Shown: positions 2,271 through 14,001 of the stretch, in pieces
Layout: each line of letters starts with the position of its first letter
How positions within the stretch are numbered: the first letter of the stretch is position 1
Assembly: GCA_902803795.1 (NCBI GenBank)
Contig: CADCRC010000024.1
Span: forward strand, 1-14,001
DNA from: an uncultured Erysipelotrichaceae bacterium
GTDB lineage: Bacteria; Bacillota_I; Bacilli_A; RF39; UBA660
DNA: 14,001 nt
Direction of reading: 5' to 3'
Position numbers and translations under genes: made by a program
The notes under the pieces: generated by a model
Database searches by the model: none
Told to the model about the DNA's origin: nothing
The model's input: the letters and a program-made list of their open reading frames with translations, nothing else

Positions 2271-3500
2271 ATGAAAAAAAGAATAATACTACTAACTATT
2301 TTAATGACATTGTTAATACCAAAAATAGTAAATGGAAAAGAGTTAACATTAGAACAAATAAAAAATAATTATATAGAAATAAAATATAATGAATGTCTCG
2401 AAACAAAGCAATATCATGAAAGTATTGGAAAAGAATTTAATTCAGATTGTAATAAAAAAAATAATATAACAATAACTAATAATAAATTAGTAATAGTAGA
2501 ACAAGCAAAATTAAATAATGAAATGCAAAAAATAAAAATTACATATAGTTTAAATAAAAATATTTTATCAACAACATTTGAAGGAAATAACCCATTTTTT
2601 AGATTTTGTGATTTTAAAAAATTATTTATGGCAACACAACTTCTTCAAGGATATAGTGAAGATGAAATAAATATAATTTTACATAGTGAAAATATTGATG
2701 ATTATACTATTGAGAAAAATGGCTTTGAAATAAAAACAATAGGTACAAACGAGAATATGACTGGAGGATATGGAAAAATTGATATTTCAAAGAAAATTAA
2801 TATAGGAGATAAAAAAGAAAATACTGGAATATCAAAAAAAGATATAGAAAACTATAATGGAATTGACAGTCTAAAATCAGAATCAGAAAAAGATAATTTA
2901 GACATAGTTATAAATGGAGTAGCTATTTACAAAAGTTATAAAAATGGTAAATATATTTTATCAATAGGAGAACAAAACAAGTTAACAGATGCTTCATATA
3001 AAACATTAAAAGTAGTTAACTCAATCATATTTGATGAAGATAAAAGAGCAAATAAATATTTAGAAAAATACTATCCTAAAATTGGTGAAGATAAAAATTT
3101 TATAGGATATGAAATTGATATAAACCCAACTAATGAAAATCATTATTATAACCTATTTCCAGATTTTAAATTTATTGAAATAAGAATAGACAAAGCTAGA
3201 GCAAAAGAACAATTTTATAAAGTAAATGATAAAAAAGATAATCAAATTGGTAATTTTATACAAAAAAACAAATATATTTTTGTAGTAATAACAATATTAG
3301 TAGTAATAATATTAGGCATATTTATTCTATCAAAACTTGCAAAGAAAGATGCGTTTAAAGCAAATATTCAATCATCAAAAACAAACAAACCAACCATAGA
3401 AAACCAACAAATAAATAATCAAAATTATATACAAAAAACATCTATTGAGCAACCTAAACCAAACAATGAAACCAATCAAAATTTAAATAACAACAATTAA
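2271..3500 (+). CDS. Hypothetical cell-surface protein (Sec signal peptide plus C-terminal transmembrane anchor)
   Basis: 409 aa. The N-terminus MKKRIILLTILMTLLIPKIVNG is a typical signal peptide. A C-terminal hydrophobic helix (IFVVITILVVIILGIFILSKL) is followed by a K-rich stop-transfer sequence and an N/Q-rich low-complexity tail. A strong SD (aaaggag) lies 8 nt upstream. I recognised no domain. Confidence 0.7.
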   Translation: MKKRIILLTILMTLLIPKIVNGKELTLEQIKNNYIEIKYNECLETKQYHESIGKEFNSDCNKKNNITITNNKLVIVEQAKLNNEMQKIKITYSLNKNILSTTFEGNNPFFRFCDFKKLFMATQLLQGYSEDEINIILHSENIDDYTIEKNGFEIKTIGTNENMTGGYGKIDISKKINIGDKKENTGISKKDIENYNGIDSLKSESEKDNLDIVINGVAIYKSYKNGKYILSIGEQNKLTDASYKTLKVVNSIIFDEDKRANKYLEKYYPKIGEDKNFIGYEIDINPTNENHYYNLFPDFKFIEIRIDKARAKEQFYKVNDKKDNQIGNFIQKNKYIFVVITILVVIILGIFILSKLAKKDAFKANIQSSKTNKPTIENQQINNQNYIQKTSIEQPKPNNETNQNLNNNN

Positions 3501-6122: not shown

Positions 6123-7109
6123 ATGCAGTCGATATTAACTTATGGCAGTTATTTTGGAGTAAATATGTACCAAATAAACTTTATATATGACTCAAAAGAA
6201 TATGATATAGACAGAGAAAACACATATAGAGTATTTAAAAACTATATTATTCCAAAATATGGTATGAATTCACAAAGACAAGAACTTCATAAAGAAGTAA
6301 TACAACCATACCTCGTAGATAAAAAAGGTAATATTATTAATACACAAAACTATTATAATAGTGGAATAATAGGAGGATGTAATATACCTGAAGATATTCT
6401 ATACAAGTTTATAAAAGAACTAATAGATGATTATAATATACCAATTACAATTGTTGGCACAAGATACTATATATATGATAACAAAGCAATAGATAAAAGT
6501 GTTAGTTATTTAAGAATAAAAGCTAATTTATACGAAGAAGAAGAATTATATAAATTAGAATTTATATATTCAACAATTAGACAACAAGATTATATAAATA
6601 AAAGAATAAAAGAGATTAAATATAATAATATTAAAACAAATATTAAAAATAATGTAGTAGAAAGTATTGAATTTGATAAGAAAAATGATAAAATACTAAA
6701 TGAGTTAGTAAAAGTAGATGGAATCATAATAAATAATGGAGGTATAATTATGAAGGAAAAAAATATTTTCGAAGGAGCACCAGTTATTTCTGCAGACAAT
6801 GAAAAAGAAATAAAAGTAGAAAAAGAAGAAAAAAACAATTATAAAAATCTTACAACAGAAAAATTAAAAGAATTATCAAGTGAAGAATTAAAAAAATTAT
6901 CACAAGATATAGCAAACAAATTAGAAGAAAAGAGAAAACAATTAAAAGATATAAAAGGACGTGTAGTTGTATCTGAACAAGAATTAGAAAATTTAAGTAA
7001 TGATTTTGAAAGAAAGCTTAGAGAAGATATAATGAAAACAAATGAAAAAATAGAAAAAGCAAAAGAAGAAAAAGAAGCACTTGATGTAGCAATAGGAATA
7101 AGGAAATAA
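6123..7109 (+). CDS. Hypothetical cytoplasmic protein with a C-terminal K/E-rich coiled coil
   Basis: 328 aa. An SD aggtgg lies 5 nt upstream. The N-terminal ~210 aa is a Tyr/Ile-rich domain I could not assign. The C-terminal ~100 aa is a charged heptad-like coiled coil (EKLKELSSEELKKLSQDIANKLEEKRKQLKDIKG...). No transmembrane segment. It is followed 3 nt later by the SPFH gene. Confidence 0.7.
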   Translation: MQSILTYGSYFGVNMYQINFIYDSKEYDIDRENTYRVFKNYIIPKYGMNSQRQELHKEVIQPYLVDKKGNIINTQNYYNSGIIGGCNIPEDILYKFIKELIDDYNIPITIVGTRYYIYDNKAIDKSVSYLRIKANLYEEEELYKLEFIYSTIRQQDYINKRIKEIKYNNIKTNIKNNVVESIEFDKKNDKILNELVKVDGIIINNGGIIMKEKNIFEGAPVISADNEKEIKVEKEEKNNYKNLTTEKLKELSSEELKKLSQDIANKLEEKRKQLKDIKGRVVVSEQELENLSNDFERKLREDIMKTNEKIEKAKEEKEALDVAIGIRK

Positions 7110-8523: not shown

Positions 8524-10461
8524 TTATATTTGAATAAACTTATTTTCGTGTGGAATTACAGTTACATTATTCGAAGTATTTTCAATACTATTATTAGAAT
8601 TATTATTGTTATTTATAGTATTATCATTTGATATAGAAGTATTGCCAATATTAACTGCAACATTTTGATTTTGTATCATATTATTATTTGGTGTAACATT
8701 AGTATTTGATGATCCATTCCATATTTCAAGTACATTACAATTAGATGACCAAGGAGTAGGATTTGGCATTTCCATCCTAACAATTATTGGAATTCTAAAA
8801 GCACCACCAAAACCTAAACAAGTTCCAGATTGTAAAGTTTTTTGTTTTTCAACAATTTCATCTGAAATATTAGGAACCATTTTTCTAATATAATCAACAT
8901 CAACAGGATGATTCATCTTAAAAATTAAGAAATTAGAACACTGAGAAATAACAGTATCTGAAAGTTCTACAGGTCTTTGAGAAATAAGACCTAAAATCAC
9001 ACCATACTTACGTCCTTCTTTAGCAATTCTTTCAAATATATTATAACCAATTAAAAATCTATCAGTATCATTTTGAATATATCTATGAGCTTCTTCAACT
9101 ACAATATGAAATGGGATAGATGCTCTATCTTTTAGTCCTTTAGCAAAATCAAAAACAAGTCTCGAGAATATCTTAGTCATTACTTTAGCAAAATCATCAT
9201 CTACATCATTTAAATTTATATTTACAATTTGATATTTACGAGAATCACGAATTAGTAATGATGATAAATATTGATCTATTGTAACATATTCAGGATATTC
9301 AAAATACTTTGAATTATTACCAACAATTAAAGCATGAAGTCTAACTCTTATAGTAACCGCATCACCATAAGTTGTTTGATTTCTAAGCCATCCTTCAGAT
9401 ATTAAAGTAAAGTTTAAAGCCTTTTCTAAAGTAGCTAAATCATAATATACATTTTCTTGTGGTTCATAATTATCATATTCTTTTTTTATAAAAGATGAAA
9501 CATATTCAGTTAATAATACACTTTCACTAAATTGTCCTGCATTATCAATTAAAAAACAATCTCTAAACTTTCTTGTATAACCAATACCTTGTACTGGTGC
9601 TTCTAAATTAAACTGTGGAGTAGAACAGCTTGCTATAATAGAAAATATTTCATTTCTTTTATTAGGAGAAGTTTCATTAGTAAATAATATTGTCATTATA
9701 GCACTTGCAATTATATGATTTTTAAATTTATTAGCATCAACATCTTTTTGTGAAAATATTAAAGCAAGTTTTCTCATTCTTTCGATGATTGGAAGTTGTG
9801 AATGAGTAGTACATTGTAATAATAAAGCAAGATCTTGTACATTTAATAAATATATAGGTAATCTTAATCTTTCACCAATACCATCTGTTTCATTAGTAGT
9901 AAGATATCTATAATTAAAGTTTTTATTAATCTCATTCAAATTACTGAAAGCATTATAATACTCACCAGAAGAATCAAACAAAAGAATGTTAGATTTATAT
10001 GGATACAATCTTTCATCATGAAACATATTTTGAAATATTCTTGTAACACCACAAGATTTACCAGAACCTGAATTACCAAAGATTGCAAAATGATTCGAAA
10101 AAAAGTTATTAACTTCTAAATATACAGTTGTATCATTATAAAAAGGTGATAAACCAAGTTTCATAAATCCTGTTTTATCTTCACCTGTAATTAAAGGAAT
10201 TTCCTCTTTAGAAATAAGTCTTATTTTTGCATCTAAATTAGGCTTTCTAATTGTACCACCAATTAATTTTCCATCTTTTATTTCACCTAAAAATCTAGCA
10301 GTAACTCTATCACCATCTAAGTTATCAACCTCACCAAGAACTTTTTTATCCGCATCTTCAAAAATTAAATGAAGATTCATAACATTAGTAGTTAAGTTAT
10401 CTGGATCTTTTAATTTTATATCAGCAGTCTTATCACTAATAAAAAGAATTCTATCAAACAT
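8524..10461 (-). CDS. HerA-like / FtsK-HerA superfamily P-loop ATPase (DUF87-type) with an Asn-rich C-terminal tail
   Basis: 645 aa. The N-terminal ~120 aa is a HAS-barrel-like beta region (VLGEVDNLDGDRVTARFLGEI...GGTIRKPNLDAKIRLIS). Walker A is AIFGNSGSGKS. Walker B is the DEAH type (FHIVVEEAHRY). A sensor/Arg-finger region matches HerA (ILGLISQRPVELSDTVISQCSNFLIFKMNHPVD). The last ~90 aa are N/S/T low complexity. On the minus strand, the SD agagagg lies 10 nt upstream of the ATG. Confidence 0.8.
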   Translation of the reverse strand: MFDRILFISDKTADIKLKDPDNLTTNVMNLHLIFEDADKKVLGEVDNLDGDRVTARFLGEIKDGKLIGGTIRKPNLDAKIRLISKEEIPLITGEDKTGFMKLGLSPFYNDTTVYLEVNNFFSNHFAIFGNSGSGKSCGVTRIFQNMFHDERLYPYKSNILLFDSSGEYYNAFSNLNEINKNFNYRYLTTNETDGIGERLRLPIYLLNVQDLALLLQCTTHSQLPIIERMRKLALIFSQKDVDANKFKNHIIASAIMTILFTNETSPNKRNEIFSIIASCSTPQFNLEAPVQGIGYTRKFRDCFLIDNAGQFSESVLLTEYVSSFIKKEYDNYEPQENVYYDLATLEKALNFTLISEGWLRNQTTYGDAVTIRVRLHALIVGNNSKYFEYPEYVTIDQYLSSLLIRDSRKYQIVNINLNDVDDDFAKVMTKIFSRLVFDFAKGLKDRASIPFHIVVEEAHRYIQNDTDRFLIGYNIFERIAKEGRKYGVILGLISQRPVELSDTVISQCSNFLIFKMNHPVDVDYIRKMVPNISDEIVEKQKTLQSGTCLGFGGAFRIPIIVRMEMPNPTPWSSNCNVLEIWNGSSNTNVTPNNNMIQNQNVAVNIGNTSISNDNTINNNNNSNNSIENTSNNVTVIPHENKFIQI

Positions 10462-10490
10462 ATATAATCAACCTCTCTATTCTAATTATA

Positions 10491-10518
10491 AATTATACAT
10501 GATTTTCGACATTTTACA
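10491..10518 (-). promoter_or_regulatory. Near-consensus sigma-A promoter for the HerA-like gene
   Basis: The minus strand reads TTGTAA (plus 10518..10513), then a 16-nt spacer, then TATAAT (plus 10496..10491). The predicted TSS is ~20 nt upstream of the ATG at 10461. Confidence 0.45.
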
Positions 10519-10555
10519 AGTAATCAAAAAAAAATAAAGAAAAAAAAATGAAAAT

Positions 10556-10564
10556 ATGATAAAA
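10556..10564 (+). promoter_or_regulatory. Possible extended -10 element (TGaTAAAAT) for the divergent effector operon
   Basis: A TGnTAAAAT match sits ~30 nt upstream of the gene-A SD (ggtg at 10587-10590). No good -35 is present. The surrounding sequence is poly-A tracts, so this call is weak. Confidence 0.25.
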
Positions 10565-10597
10565 TAAAAAAAAGATTAATAGAAAGATGGTGTTAAA

Positions 10598-12157
10598 ATG
10601 GCAGGGAAAGTAACTATAATATATGATGCAATAGAAAAATCTATAACAAAACTTGATTCTGCATCTACAGAAGCAACTAATACTAATGCAAAAATAGATG
10701 ATATTATATCAGATTTATCATCACTTGGAAGTAATCACGATAATTGTTTTGCATTAACAATTGCGTCATTAGAAGAATATTCAAGTTTTATTAAAAAAAT
10801 ATGTGGAGAATTAGATGCTACAAAGTCTTTAGCAAGTACTGCAGTAAGTTCATTAAAAGAAGCTGAACAAAATGGATCAAATAATCTAGATAGTTTAAGA
10901 ACAGCATTAGTTCTATTAGGTATGGCAGAAACTTCAGTTAATGCTTTAGATTTTAAAAACTTAAATTCATATAGTACTATGGATGAATATGAAAAATCAG
11001 ATAATAAAGCTGATATATCAAGATATCAAGAATACTATAACAATTCAGGTGCAGTATTAACAGATATAATAAATAGTGCAATAGTAGATAGAATGTTAAA
11101 TAAAAATTCAGATGGATCATATAGTGTAATGACAACAGAGCAAATGAAACAATATCTAGAGGATATAACAAAAGCAAAAATATATGATAAAATTAGAAGT
11201 GGAATAGATGAACCAGGAGGACCATATGGTGGAGGCGGAGGCTCATCAGGTGGAGGCTCATCTTCAAGTGGAGGTGGAAATTCATCAAATAATCAAAATG
11301 GACAAAACGAATCTCCAGCAGCAACACCATCACAACAAGCAACTCAAGCTGTCCAAACACCACAAGAACAGCCAACATCTTCAAATTCTTCTTCACCTTC
11401 CGCAGCCTCTATACCACAACTTAGTCAAACACCAAAATTGTCAACTCCAACTTTATCATCTACAATTTCACCATTGACAAAAAAAGATACTATAACAAAA
11501 AAAGATAGTTCTTCAGATGATAAAATAAGTACATTAGATACAGATAAAATACCTGCTGCAACATCAACAATAAGTCCATTATATTCAGCAGTTACAAATG
11601 TTCCTGCAGCAAGTTCATTAATTGGAGCTACAAATGCAGCATTACCAAATATAACTACAAATAAAGAATCTGGAACATCAAGAATTAATAGTACACCAGT
11701 TACAACTAAACCAACAGTAGAAGAAATAAACAGAGTAGTAACAGAAAAAAGTAATAATATTACACCTAAAAAAGCTGATATTGCAAAAGACTTAGGAAAA
11801 ATTTCTGAAGATGCAATAAAAACACCAACTATTGAAGAAAAGCCAGAAATAATACCGGAAGATTATCTAAATAATGAAGATCAAATAACAATATTAGATA
11901 AAGCTAAGACAAATTTAGGAGGATTTGCGGCAAAGAAGACAACAGTTGAACAAGACAATGATGACAATTTTGGAAAAGCAGCAATTGGTATCGCTTTAGG
12001 AGCTGGTGCAGTAGCTGCAGGAGTAGGTGCCAAAATATATATGGATAAGAAAAAAGAAGAAACTACAACCGAAGAACAAAATAATGAAAATAATATAAAT
12101 GATGAAAGTAATTCAAGTAGTGAAATTTCATTAATTGATGAACCACTAGATATATAG
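10598..12157 (+). CDS. Tail-anchored membrane protein: N-terminal helical (LXG/WXG-like) domain, Gly/Ser linker, long Ser/Thr/Pro-rich disordered region, one C-terminal transmembrane helix and an acidic tail
   Basis: 519 aa. Residues 1-~200 are predicted helical (MAGKVTIIYDAIEKSITKLD...KIDDIISDLSSLG...). GGPYGGGGGSSGGGSSSSGGGNSS is a flexible linker. About 200 aa rich in S/T/P/Q is mucin-like. The only hydrophobic helix is near the C-terminus (AAIGIALGAGAVAAGVGAKIYM), followed by a D/E/N-rich tail. There is no signal peptide. Confidence 0.75.
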   Translation: MAGKVTIIYDAIEKSITKLDSASTEATNTNAKIDDIISDLSSLGSNHDNCFALTIASLEEYSSFIKKICGELDATKSLASTAVSSLKEAEQNGSNNLDSLRTALVLLGMAETSVNALDFKNLNSYSTMDEYEKSDNKADISRYQEYYNNSGAVLTDIINSAIVDRMLNKNSDGSYSVMTTEQMKQYLEDITKAKIYDKIRSGIDEPGGPYGGGGGSSGGGSSSSGGGNSSNNQNGQNESPAATPSQQATQAVQTPQEQPTSSNSSSPSAASIPQLSQTPKLSTPTLSSTISPLTKKDTITKKDSSSDDKISTLDTDKIPAATSTISPLYSAVTNVPAASSLIGATNAALPNITTNKESGTSRINSTPVTTKPTVEEINRVVTEKSNNITPKKADIAKDLGKISEDAIKTPTIEEKPEIIPEDYLNNEDQITILDKAKTNLGGFAAKKTTVEQDNDDNFGKAAIGIALGAGAVAAGVGAKIYMDKKKEETTTEEQNNENNINDESNSSSEISLIDEPLDI

Positions 12158-12166
12158 GAGGAAACT

Positions 12167-13822
12167 ATGGAAGTAGTAGATATTACATGGAATCCTAATG
12201 AAGAAATAAATTTTTTAGATGAAAACAACTTTGATGATTATGCTTCATATTTAGATACTATAAAAAATCAACTTGAGGATCAAGAATCTATTATAGATGA
12301 TGAACTTAATATTGGAGGATTAAATGCAGCATCATTAAATTTTGATGGCTTTTCTCCTCTATGTGAAATGGGAATGAGTATAAAAAACAATTTAAGAATG
12401 GCAATAGAAGCATTAAATGAATTAAAAAGTATGGCAAAAGATGACATGTTATATCATATGACAAATGAATGGGGTAAACATTATCAAGAAGCATATTATC
12501 ATTTGGAAGAACTAAGAGAAACATATAATAATCATTCAAATGACGATTCTAATAAAAACCAGGCATATCAAGAATATGAAGATTACAAAGATATATATGA
12601 AAGCATAAAATCTAAATATGAATCTTTAGCTGGTCAAGGAAGTGCTTCAAATGCTTTAAATATTAATTTTGTTGAAGCAAGCAAACAAAGTATTGGAAGG
12701 GAAATTATAGGAAGTGTTTCTATACCAAGCGATGTAAGACAAGGTAATTATACTGTTACAACTTTTGATACATTTAAATGGTCACATAGTGCAACAGGAC
12801 AAGGACAAATATATGATTTATGGGTTTCACAAGGAAAACCTACAAGAAATGGTCTTGCATACGTTAATGTATGTGGAGAAGATAGATATCTAATAGCTAC
12901 AACTACAGCATTAGGAAAAACTGGAGATATGGTAGATTTAGATCTTAAAAATGGACAAACACTAAAATGTTTAATAACAGATATTAAAAATCCAAATGAT
13001 TCAAATTATTCAAAATATGGTCATACTCTAACAGATGGAAGCATTAATGTACTTGAATTTGAAGTAACAAAAGAAGCATTTGATTCTCATGGACGACAAA
13101 ATCCATCTACTTCAGTTTATAATCTTGAATGGGATTCAACAAGTCCTGTAACAACAGTAAATAGTCGTGGAAGTATATTTAAAAATGGAGATATAAATAC
13201 ATTTGCAGATGATATTAATTCAAGTGGTGGATCAGGAAGAACTACAAATAAAACATATTCAAATCTAAATGGAATTAGAACAAGTAATTCTGCACCAAAA
13301 ACAACAAATATTGTATATACTAGTAAAAATAATAATAGTCAAAATATTAACGATGGAGTATCATTTCAACCAACAGGCAATGCACAAAAAGATGCAATAG
13401 CATGGGGAAAATCAATTGCAGAAGATAATAGATATGGTTATAAATGGGGTGGAGGACACAATGGCGATGATGGCTCTGGAGGTTATAATTGTTCAGGACT
13501 AATATGTAATGCATATATTAATGCTGGAATACTTCCAAAAGGAAAAGTTATCCAATCAGCTCAGATGCCATCACAATTACCAAAATATGGATTTGAATAT
13601 GTGGGTAATGCGTCAAAAAGTTATGAAGGATTGCAACCTGGAGATATTCTAGTAAAACCAGGATCTCACGTAGAAATGTATGTTGGAAACGGGAAAGTAT
13701 TAGGCGCAAGAGGAGATTATGACAAATCACCGGGTGATTCTAGTGGTGGAGAAATAAGTGTAAGAAAATATGGCAATAGCAATTGGAATGGATATCTAAT
13801 ATACAGATATACTGGAAATTAA
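12167..13822 (+). CDS. Leaderless multidomain peptidoglycan hydrolase: LXG/WXG-like helical N-domain, putative 3D/DPBB-like beta domain and C-terminal NlpC/P60 (papain-like) peptidase
   Basis: 551 aa. The SD aggagg overlaps the stop of the upstream gene, which suggests translational coupling. The N-terminal ~170 aa is helical (MEVVDITWNPNEEINFLDE...ELNIGGL...HMTNEWGKHYQEAYYHLEEL). Residues ~190-330 (RYLIATTTALGKTGDMVDLDLKNGQTLKCLITDIK...GHTLTDGSINVLEFEV) resemble 3D/RlpA-like barrels, but this is a weak call. The C-terminal YKWGGGHNGDDGSGGYNCSGLICNAYINAGILPKG...PGDILVKPGSHVEMYVGNGKVLGARGD is a clear NlpC/P60 Cys...His core. Confidence 0.8.
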   Translation: MEVVDITWNPNEEINFLDENNFDDYASYLDTIKNQLEDQESIIDDELNIGGLNAASLNFDGFSPLCEMGMSIKNNLRMAIEALNELKSMAKDDMLYHMTNEWGKHYQEAYYHLEELRETYNNHSNDDSNKNQAYQEYEDYKDIYESIKSKYESLAGQGSASNALNINFVEASKQSIGREIIGSVSIPSDVRQGNYTVTTFDTFKWSHSATGQGQIYDLWVSQGKPTRNGLAYVNVCGEDRYLIATTTALGKTGDMVDLDLKNGQTLKCLITDIKNPNDSNYSKYGHTLTDGSINVLEFEVTKEAFDSHGRQNPSTSVYNLEWDSTSPVTTVNSRGSIFKNGDINTFADDINSSGGSGRTTNKTYSNLNGIRTSNSAPKTTNIVYTSKNNNSQNINDGVSFQPTGNAQKDAIAWGKSIAEDNRYGYKWGGGHNGDDGSGGYNCSGLICNAYINAGILPKGKVIQSAQMPSQLPKYGFEYVGNASKSYEGLQPGDILVKPGSHVEMYVGNGKVLGARGDYDKSPGDSSGGEISVRKYGNSNWNGYLIYRYTGN

Positions 13823-13843
13823 TATAAATAAGGGAGGAAAAAA

Positions 13844-14001
13844 ATGGAAGTCGCAAGTATAACATATAATGATGGTGAAGAACCAGCATTTCTAAAAAAA
13901 TCAGATTATGATTCATTTTTAGAATCCTTAGATTCAGTATCTAAAACCTTGGAAGAGCAATCAGAAACAATAAATGAGGAATTACATAATGGTGGATTAA
14001 A
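13844..14001 (+). CDS. 5' end (partial) of a third paralog sharing the N-terminal LXG/WXG-like domain
   Basis: The SD agggagg lies 6 nt upstream of the ATG at 13844. The 52 visible codons, MEVASITYNDGEEPAFLKKSDYDSFLESLDSVSKTLEEQSETINEELHNGGL, align colinearly (~40% identity) with the N-terminus of the 12167 gene. The ORF runs off the window end. Confidence 0.7.
   Translation, partial: MEVASITYNDGEEPAFLKKSDYDSFLESLDSVSKTLEEQSETINEELHNGGL

Follow-up and report, generated by a model that had tools for sequence, protein, structure and literature searches.

In a 14,001-nucleotide stretch of DNA from an uncultured Erysipelotrichaceae bacterium (contig CADCRC010000024.1 of assembly GCA_902803795.1; hereafter the window), gene A encodes a protein that we read, tentatively and with somewhat less than even confidence, as a type VII-style, WXG100/Lap-like partner of the LXG-like wall hydrolases encoded by the adjoining genes B and C, carrying a membrane-active module of its own. 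In more general terms, gene A is probably an export partner or a membrane tether of the neighbouring signal-less wall-cutting enzyme, because it is always found beside a wall-cutting enzyme that lacks an ordinary export signal. We favour the more specific version because of the type of its head, a motif that resembles an export arm, its position upstream of an effector, the overlap of its stop codon with the Shine-Dalgarno sequence of gene B, its co-occurrence with B-type heads, and the gene context of one homolog (locus L084). The genes concerned, and the two parts of the head of A, are located as follows.

10598 to 12157, + strand: gene A, ATG start, 519 residues, TAG stop at 12155 to 12157
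10598 to 10882, + strand: helix-turn-helix hairpin assigned to the WXG100 superfamily, residues 1 to 95 (AlphaFold2 (AF2) model, hhalign, column conservation)
10883 to 11212, + strand: second conserved part of the N-domain, residues 96 to 205, with the patterns LGM..SVNALDF..N and DG.GSY..T..E...Y; fold uncertain
12167 to 13822, + strand: gene B, 551 residues, with a head (residues 1 to 175), a middle domain and a C-terminal NlpC/P60 (ELLD) peptidase (residues 425 to 515)
13838 to 14001, + strand: start of gene C, corresponding to P0002 (524 residues: B-type head, phage-tail-lysozyme-like domain, NlpC/P60)

The AF2 model of the A head, which was built on a six-sequence alignment and is of moderate confidence, places helices at residues 9 to 44 and 52 to 91, joined by a loop at 45 to 51 (predicted local distance difference test score, pLDDT, 73 to 91), with the conserved G-S-N-H-D-N-C loop at the tip. 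The helix-turn-helix hairpin of about 100 residues that is typical of the WXG100 superfamily is thus present in the model; residues 97 to 205 were modelled at low confidence as short helices and a beta-hairpin. We compared a profile of 12 A-family heads (residues 1 to 100) by hhalign with 11 WXG100-type sequences, namely small proteins of about 100 residues from loci L084 and L091, several of which have PF06013 matches, and the WxG heads of P0005, P0012, P0013 and P0006. The two profiles matched over 95 columns with a probability of 92% (E 6e-7). Taken separately, two disjoint subsets of the WXG100-type set still matched the A heads at 87% and 72%, and the controls, consisting of reversed sequence and four unrelated helical families, did not exceed 1.3%. 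One A-family member also matches PF06013 at E 0.0023, below the gathering score. Judged from sequence comparison, the profile-profile match with its clean controls makes residues 1 to 95 of A a probable member of the WXG100 hairpin superfamily.

Two details of the alignment bear on how the hairpin might work. The aromatic residue that follows W-x-G aligns to F51 of A, and the second helix of the A family ends in F-x-x-x-E in eight of nine members, with E90 invariant. At the same position Lap1 has an FxxxD motif that the export of LXG toxins requires (PMC9600955). In place of the WxG context, the hairpin loop of A carries H-D-x-C-F (residues 47 to 51, nucleotides 10736 to 10750), which is invariant, with the His and Cys present in all nine members; this loop could be a metal-binding or partner-binding site.

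The partner assignment for A also draws on its neighbours. Local hidden Markov model searches covered loci of four divergent groups, and in every one of them A adjoins a gene with a B-type head, in either order: A precedes B in the window and the near-identical contig L001, in L002, in L003 and in L085 to L089, and the B-type gene precedes A in L084. B-type heads, for their part, were found only in loci that also hold A. The B-type head of L084 bears a different C-terminal domain; A is thus paired with the head and not with its cargo, and the conserved unit is therefore a pair of heads.

The locus L084 also supplies a type VII context. It consists of two WXG100 genes, a B-type effector, the A homolog, a DUF4176 gene, two genes for helical proteins of about 95 residues, and a second DUF4176 gene, which is a typical effector island of type VIIb secretion (T7SSb). 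Proteins of the DUF4176 family serve LXG effectors as chaperones, and their genes lie downstream of the effector genes (PMC12482557). A preliminary description of this DNA, made from the letters of the window, had proposed that A could be an adaptor or the first substrate of a non-Sec route, and this idea, with the route shared by B and C, fits the WXG100-like head, the constant B-type-head neighbour and the WXG100/DUF4176 island of L084. Its further suggestion of a role like that of EsaA or EssB was pure speculation.

Neither B nor C has a signal peptide. The model of the B head contains three long helices (residues 19 to 57, 62 to 121 and 128 to 155; pLDDT 81), and the invariant F59-D60-G61 lies in the loop joining helices 1 and 2, the predicted tip of the hairpin. 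In the model this tip resembles the LxG/FxG tip of LXG domains; FxG is the form of the tip reported for EsxX (PMC12744356). The B head is, however, not recognised by Pfam and matches the WXG100-type sequences weakly (6%, profile-profile). A Foldseek search of the PDB with the model returned only generic helical bundles (E of at least 0.16). According to the preliminary description, A and B share the same helical head and an I-D-D-x-x-x-L-x-x-L-G motif. Homology of the two heads was rejected: BLASTP gave E 0.09 and profile-profile comparison at most 0.8%, falling to 0.2 to 0.3% with deeper alignments, so that A and B heads form two separate families. The motif is a chance resemblance. Its spacing differs (IDDIISDLSSLG in A vs IDDELNIGGL in B), the IDD is conserved in neither family, and in the models the LG of A lies at the hairpin turn whereas the GGL of B is within helix 1.

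The middle domain of B (residues about 180 to 340) has no Pfam match; its consensus is SGYTVTGYD.W...NGIAV.NV.G.DRYL.A...GD..D..L.NG....C.I.D.K...YGH...G..NVLEFEV, and we presume that it resembles a double-psi beta-barrel or a 3D-type lytic transglycosylase. Many other proteins without a signal peptide carry it behind heads of different kinds (P0005 to P0013), including some with WXG100-/LXG-type and true WxG heads; for P0005, a carrier with a true WxG head, a PF06013 match is on record. In L091, an effector with the B middle domain is immediately preceded by two small WXG100-like genes, which is the Lap-Lap-LXG layout, and gene A of the window holds the same position upstream of effector B as that WXG100-like pair.

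The junctions on either side of gene A are defined by two further features.

10462 to 10597, + strand: AT-rich spacer of 136 bp separating the divergent HerA-like ATPase gene from gene A (read from the sequence)
12156 to 12161, + strand: AGGAGG, the Shine-Dalgarno sequence of gene B, overlapping the stop codon of gene A and lying 5 nucleotides ahead of the ATG of B (12167)

The second of these has a geometry suited to translational coupling. Because the stop codon of A overlaps the Shine-Dalgarno sequence of B, and because no terminator-like site was found between 10300 and 14001, we conclude that gene A is the first gene of an A-B-C operon, as had been proposed. The spacer is presumably the home of the operon promoter and of the ribosome-binding site; promoter-like hexamers were no commoner there than in shuffled sequence, and we claim no specific promoter.

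These observations suggest a mechanism in which the first ~95 residues of A would form a WXG100-type hairpin that packs onto the long helical head of B or C. A would contribute the F/L-x-x-x-E export arm and B the F-x-G hairpin tip, which together would constitute the bipartite signal of type VII substrates. The remainder of A, that is, the spacer of about 250 residues, the Ala/Gly segment, the K-x-Y-x-D-x-K collar and the acidic tail, would then put the complex at the membrane. What follows would depend on topology. If the N-terminus is inside, A could be a membrane-tethered cytoplasmic targeting factor, holding the pre-secretion complex at the cytoplasmic face of the membrane; if it is outside, A might be co-exported and act as a long leash that keeps the hydrolase at the cell surface.

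Several points weigh against a partner of the type VII kind. Lap proteins are soluble, paired proteins of about 100 to 150 residues, and we know of no description of one that also has a linker, a membrane segment and a tail. The window A protein falls below every Pfam threshold. W-x-G is degenerate in A, where it aligns to L43-G44-S45, with [LIV]-[GS]-x as the family-wide form. Helix 2 of the window protein closes with L86-K-E-A-E90, so that in the export-arm-like motif Leu takes the place of the Phe of the family. A Foldseek search of the PDB with the A head model was non-specific, the best match being to ESCRT-III (E 0.16), and PPE41, PPE4 and EsxA appeared only among the weak matches. None of the type VII core genes essC, essB, esaA and yukD, and no WXG100 gene, was seen in the window, the one part of its genome that the search covered, or within 10 kb of the pair at L002, L086 and L088. 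Finally, the C-terminal module of A also occurs on a second head in L084, as would equally be expected of polymorphic toxin cargo. The parts of the window protein that follow the N-domain are these.

11213 to 11293, + strand: Gly/Ser-rich flexible run, residues 206 to 232, encoded by a locally GC-rich GGN/TCN tract (GC 0.51 to 0.53)
11294 to 11965, + strand: low-complexity, presumably disordered linker, residues 233 to 456 (composition and family alignment)
11978 to 12031, + strand: Ala/Gly-rich, marginally hydrophobic segment, residues 461 to 478, AAIGIALGAGAVAAGVGA, with small-xxx-small spacing
12032 to 12055, + strand: juxtamembrane motif K-I-Y-M-D-K-K-K, residues 479 to 486; family consensus K-x-Y-x-D-x-K, invariant
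12056 to 12157, + strand: rest of the acidic tail, residues 487 to 519, and the stop codon (family alignment)

The modular architecture given in the preliminary description is thereby borne out, with the helical N-domain, the Gly/Ser run, the disordered region, the hydrophobic segment and the acidic tail all present. The lack of a signal peptide was also confirmed, as no hydrophobic stretch was found at the N-terminus (maximum Kyte-Doolittle value 0.56 in the first 40 windows), and neither several transmembrane segments nor a known enzyme domain, which would likewise have spoken against the preliminary description, was detected. A sortase-type or other C-terminal sorting signal was considered and rejected: there is no LPXTG, and the hydrophobic segment lies away from the extreme C-terminus.

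A single C-terminal hydrophobic segment followed by a strongly acidic tail of about 40 residues had been predicted, and this is what we found: residues 461 to 478 are followed by 38 to 41 residues, depending on the boundary chosen (41 residues and a net charge of -8 from K479; 38 residues and -9 for residues 482 to 519). Across the family, tails counted from K479 are 41 to 71 residues long with net charges of -8 to -21, and most end in IQ[SA]PDS.W...Y. Within the segment A471, A473, A474, G475 and G477 are invariant, and its end reads A-x-A-A-G-x-G-x-K-x-Y-x-D-x-K in the whole family. On a crude Hessa scale, the summed value for the window segment is about +4.2 kcal/mol (+3.4 to +4.5 for the family), compared with -2.5 to -6.7 kcal/mol for three ordinary transmembrane helices encoded in the window. 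The label of a tail-anchored protein with a default N-in topology is therefore not supported, given that the segment is marginal, that 41 to 71 residues follow it and that Lys and Arg are in excess on the C-terminal side. Because 3 to 4 Lys/Arg residues flank the segment on its C-terminal side and 1 to 3 on its N-terminal side, an N-in orientation is not clearly favoured.

These properties of the segment raise the question of whether A might itself be the weapon, that is, a type VII effector toxin of the TelE/EsxX/TspA/LXG1-CT3 kind, with a targeting head at the N-terminus, a central region and a small-residue, glycine-zipper-like C-terminal helix that would oligomerise and depolarise or permeabilise the membrane of a competitor. 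This is the main rival of the partner reading; we consider it unlikely, but the similarities merit attention. Layout and dimensions are alike: A has 519 residues with its segment at 461 to 478, EsxX has 517 residues with an LXG domain at 1 to 220 and a zipper at 448 to 479 (PMC12744356), TelE has zipper glycines at 458 to 480 (PMC10434224), and LXG1-CT3 of S. suis has 513 residues with the toxin domain at 431 to 513 (PMC12482557). A segment too weakly hydrophobic for a standard transmembrane helix is expected of a protein that is soluble before secretion, and a DUF4176 gene lies downstream of the A homolog in L084. In the same locus, a 368-residue protein (L084:6299-7405) combines a different helical head with an A-type C-terminal module, consisting of a disordered linker, AGVAGVGVAGVGV/SAGVAGVGVAGVGV, K-A-Y-N-D-Y-K and an acidic tail, and a 257-residue paralog of its head (L084:4731-5504) ends in a disordered tail but lacks a membrane segment. 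The module thus recombines with different heads, in the manner of polymorphic toxins.

On the other side, the zipper itself is poorly kept. The window protein does not fit the published definition, (G/A/S)xxxGxxxG or GxxxGxxx(G/S/T), because its match ends in Ala; when the pattern was loosened to allow Ala at the last position, it matched only window A and the 368-residue protein of L084 and none of the other eight sequences, so that nine of the ten sequences tested lack the zipper as published. Only small-xxx-small spacing is conserved, with 2 to 4 triplets per sequence in the nine A-family members. The central region of A is of low complexity and unconstrained composition, its family profile has no sequence similarity to any solved chain, and an obligate pairing with a B-type head is foreign to the known zipper toxins. 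There is also the matter of self-protection. TelE depends on six co-expressed partner or immunity proteins, and EsxX has ExiAB plus ExiCD (PMC12744356), whereas no candidate immunity gene and no Lap pair lies beside A in the window or in the minimal loci (DivIVA-A-B-IleS and DltC-like-A-B-PFK). More widely, Lap, WXG100, DUF4176 and candidate immunity genes were all absent from the L002, L003, L086 and L088 loci, and the usual layout of an LXG toxin, with immunity downstream and Lap genes upstream, differs from the order in the window, which is ATPase (divergent), A, B, C. Since the minimal loci lack a candidate immunity gene, a partner or tether fits better than a self-toxic membrane toxin.

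The linker of A was described earlier as a mucin-like region of about 200 residues rich in Ser, Thr, Pro and Gln. Such a stretch exists, but it extends over about 140 residues (233 to 372, 53% Ser/Thr/Pro/Gln) rather than 200, and residues 373 to 456 are of mixed charge. The claim that a GC-rich run encodes the preceding Gly/Ser stretch was correct, with a GC content of 0.525 at 11225 to 11285 against 0.246 for the window as a whole, which is very AT-rich. Mucin-like is a poor name for the linker, because the Ser/Thr/Pro richness is peculiar to the window sequence: Ser/Thr/Pro/Gln make up 0.40 of the whole linker there and 0.29 to 0.34 in the L002 group, in which Lys, Glu and Asp account for 0.38 to 0.47. 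What is kept in the family is the length (about 180 to 255 residues), together with the invariant P416 and P420, and not the composition. As far as composition can tell, the linker behaves as a generic disordered spacer, and for this reason a conserved O-glycosylated stalk is unlikely in the A family.

This bears directly on the proposal that A is a wall-spanning stalk, anchored in the producer membrane with its head and an O-glycosylated region outside, as a structural part of an export apparatus. The excess of Lys and Arg on the C-terminal flank of the segment weakly favours a tail-in, head-out arrangement, and the conserved linker length could span a Gram-positive wall. Nevertheless, we hold the proposal to be improbable: the richness in Ser, Thr and Pro is not conserved, no glycosyltransferase family was found among the Pfam-scanned open reading frames of the window or in the precomputed Pfam list of L001 (from which four window frames were judged), an apparatus part would be expected beside the core machinery rather than as an isolated pair among housekeeping genes, and the family is far too rare for a core component. 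At L088:6199-7975 (- strand), upstream of the DltA-like/DltC-like/A/B cluster, two adjacent open reading frames lie which we provisionally take to be GT8-type glycosyltransferase-like; this is the only A locus where such frames were seen.

The nearest neighbour of gene A on its upstream side is an ATPase gene.

8524 to 10461, - strand: HerA-family (DUF87) ATPase, divergent neighbour of gene A

A genome scan found relatives of this ATPase in at least 278 related genomes, and we inspected the gene context of the best 80 of these (L004 to L083; 68 to 82% identity to the window protein). We take these genomes to belong to an RF39-like gut lineage, and by its ATPase the window, too, is RF39-like. 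No A or B homolog occurred within 10 kb of the ATPase at any of the 80 loci. In 15 of the 18 loci for which the gene order was listed, the ATPase gene lies between ylxM and ffh (ftsY-x-ylxM-ATPase-ffh), and in the other three the context is different. In those 15 a HerA-type ATPase thus sits within the signal recognition particle (SRP) operon. Apart from this cluster, the gene is found beside LemA in the window and in the order PP2C-ATPase-SepF-DivIVA in the L002 type. Its placement near A-B thus takes two forms: in the window it is divergent, whereas L002-type loci have it two genes upstream of the pair. It is absent from L088 and L084. An obligatory partnership of the ATPase with A-B was accordingly rejected; the ATPase is a neighbour only, and a functional link to A-B is unproven. 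No NurA, Sir2 or DUF4297 partner accompanies the ATPase in the window, and the protein finishes with a low-complexity tail rich in Asn.

One could nonetheless envision that A-B is an export module independent of type VII secretion, in which the A segment forms a holin-like conduit or lesion that passes B and C to the wall, perhaps with the help of the HerA-type ATPase. B and C lack signal peptides, A-B stands alone among housekeeping genes, a HerA-like ATPase lies 0.2 to 1 kb from the pair in two gene arrangements, and no type VII core gene was seen in the window or in the locus sequence examined. We think that this is as improbable as a stalk. Known holins are small proteins with one to three strongly hydrophobic transmembrane helices, features that A does not have; the L088 and L084 pairs have no ATPase nearby; the ATPase is present in at least 278 genomes, but in the best 80 no A or B gene comes within 10 kb of it and the listed orders mostly show the SRP operon; and the WXG100-type head and the L084 context favour type VII secretion. 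A related and very improbable view is that A and B are a minimal, self-sufficient two-gene secretion module of reduced genomes, working without the canonical EssC machine and perhaps energised by the HerA-type ATPase, which is lineage-wide. The A head would then capture the LXG-like hydrolase head, and copies of the Ala/Gly segment of A would assemble as oligomers to form the conduit.

The order of genes around the pair suggested one more possibility, which is that A is a cytoplasmic, C-terminally anchored scaffold, for instance in division or envelope formation, unrelated to secretion and beside B by accident. In three loci (L002, L003 and L086) the order is PP2C-ATPase-SepF-DivIVA-A-B-IleS, so that the pair directly follows sepF-divIVA, and the top fold matches of the A head were ESCRT-III hairpins, although not significantly (E 0.16). 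The position, however, varies: the pair is next to the ATPase and LemA in the window, between DltC-like and PFK genes in L088 (DltA-like, DltC-like, A, B, PFK), and in the WXG100 island in L084. Moreover, pairing with a B-type head is universal among the loci found, and the WXG100 profile match is specific. We give a scaffold very little credence, and like the stalk and the holin-like conduit it finds little support.

Two other genes of the window encode proteins worth recording. A 409-residue protein (2271 to 3500, + strand) has no family match; it combines a hydrophobic, signal-like stretch at the N-terminus with a strongly hydrophobic C-terminal transmembrane helix (YIFVVITILVVIILGIFIL) and an Asn/Gln-rich tail. 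A 328-residue protein (6123 to 7109, + strand), also encoded on L001, has a Lys/Glu-rich coiled-coil C-terminus and is encoded directly upstream of SPFH/Band-7 and LemA genes.

The A family itself is very small. An exhaustive HMMER scan of 1.84 billion representative proteins recovered seven relatives, three of which are full-length, and contig look-ups together with one metagenome scan raised the family to nine distinct full-length members and a 99%-identical copy. The family is thus known from about ten loci, all on low-GC metagenomic contigs. The closest copies are the 99%-identical protein on L001 and 40%-identical ones on L002 and L003. Scanning 185,579 species representatives with A-family patterns yielded no relative; a word-indexed protein search with the A N-domain and with the family alignment gave no A-family match either, in an index that does not contain this family and is therefore uninformative on its rarity. 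The A protein has no match in Pfam, NCBIfam, PHROGs or PADLOC, and a phage or defence origin was rejected on the strength of the last two. PF04740 (LXG) matched neither A nor any of six family members in Pfam, even at E up to 10, and sequence searches of the PDB with the A head, the A-family profile and the B head returned nothing meaningful. The family alignments are shallow (9 to 12 sequences), but all members have a common plan, that is, an N-domain of about 200 residues, a low-complexity linker, a TTIP..P element, an Ala/Gly-rich segment and an acidic tail, and Y9, D10, H47, C50, F51, K67, E90, L107, N123, A152 and G173 are invariant in the N-domain. Gene A thus belongs to a protein family that is new and very rare, and that can be accommodated as an unusual variant in the known T7SSb WXG100/Lap/LXG framework.

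If A is indeed a WXG100/Lap-like partner of wall hydrolases, it would be a type VII-style targeting partner that comes permanently joined to a long tether and to a membrane-active module, one that serves cell-wall hydrolases rather than classical toxins and works without immunity genes. The Lap/LXG paradigm, which comes from work on streptococci and staphylococci, would thereby be extended, and two new head families, A-type and B-type, which the domain libraries have missed, would be defined. It also raises the question of how wall hydrolases that lack a signal peptide leave the cell and come to their place, and of how they do so in uncultured, RF39-like gut bacteria whose genomes are small. 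If A is instead a toxin, it would be a very divergent membrane-depolarising effector whose self-protection is unexplained.

Among known systems, A can be compared closely with Lap1 and Lap2 (DUF3130/DUF3958; LapC1/LapD1 of S. intermedius and LapX3/LapX4 of S. aureus) and with other WXG100-like partners that target LXG effectors in T7SSb. Like these, A has a WXG100-type hairpin and is encoded directly upstream of an effector whose head is long and helical and which lacks a Sec signal. An aromatic-x-x-x-acidic motif lies near the end of helix 2 in both (FxxxD in Lap1, F/LxxxE in the A family), and in both cases the partner effector has a hydrophobic-x-G hairpin tip (LxG/FxG; F59-D-G61 in B). Unlike the Lap proteins, A has 519 rather than about 100 to 150 residues, adds a second conserved subdomain, a disordered linker of about 250 residues, a membrane segment and an acidic tail, is a single partner gene where the Lap systems have two, and reaches the Pfam threshold for none of DUF3130, DUF3958 and PF06013.

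With the zipper toxins TelE (S. gallolyticus), EsxX/TspA (S. aureus) and LXG1-CT3 (S. suis), A shares a length of about 515 residues, a helical type VII-type head of about 200 residues, a Gly/Ala-rich hydrophobic helix some 40 to 60 residues from the C-terminus and, in the locus of one homolog, a downstream DUF4176 gene. It differs from them in that its head is WXG100-like and not of the PF04740 LXG type, the GxxxGxxxG-type motif is not conserved in its strict form, the central linker is of low complexity, and the tail after the K-x-Y-x-D-x-K collar is strongly acidic; furthermore, A comes without immunity or Lap genes and is obligately paired with an LXG-like wall hydrolase. Tail-anchored proteins such as ElaB/YqjD and those of the TssL type also have a soluble helical N-domain, a single C-terminal hydrophobic segment and no signal peptide. 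The A segment is much less hydrophobic than an ordinary transmembrane helix, the 41 to 71 highly acidic residues that follow it are too long for a classical anchor, and there is no sequence relationship to A.

The WXG100 proteins proper (EsxA/EsxB, PF06013) share with A the hairpin of about 95 residues with its conserved turn, as reflected in the specific profile match, and WXG100 genes accompany the A homolog in L084. In A, however, the turn is [LIV]-[GS]-x followed by the invariant H-D-x-C-F, the Pfam gathering threshold is missed, and the hairpin forms only the first fifth of a much larger protein. What is new in A is the company that such a hairpin keeps within one protein, where it is joined by a second subdomain, a spacer that is long and disordered, and a membrane-active module.

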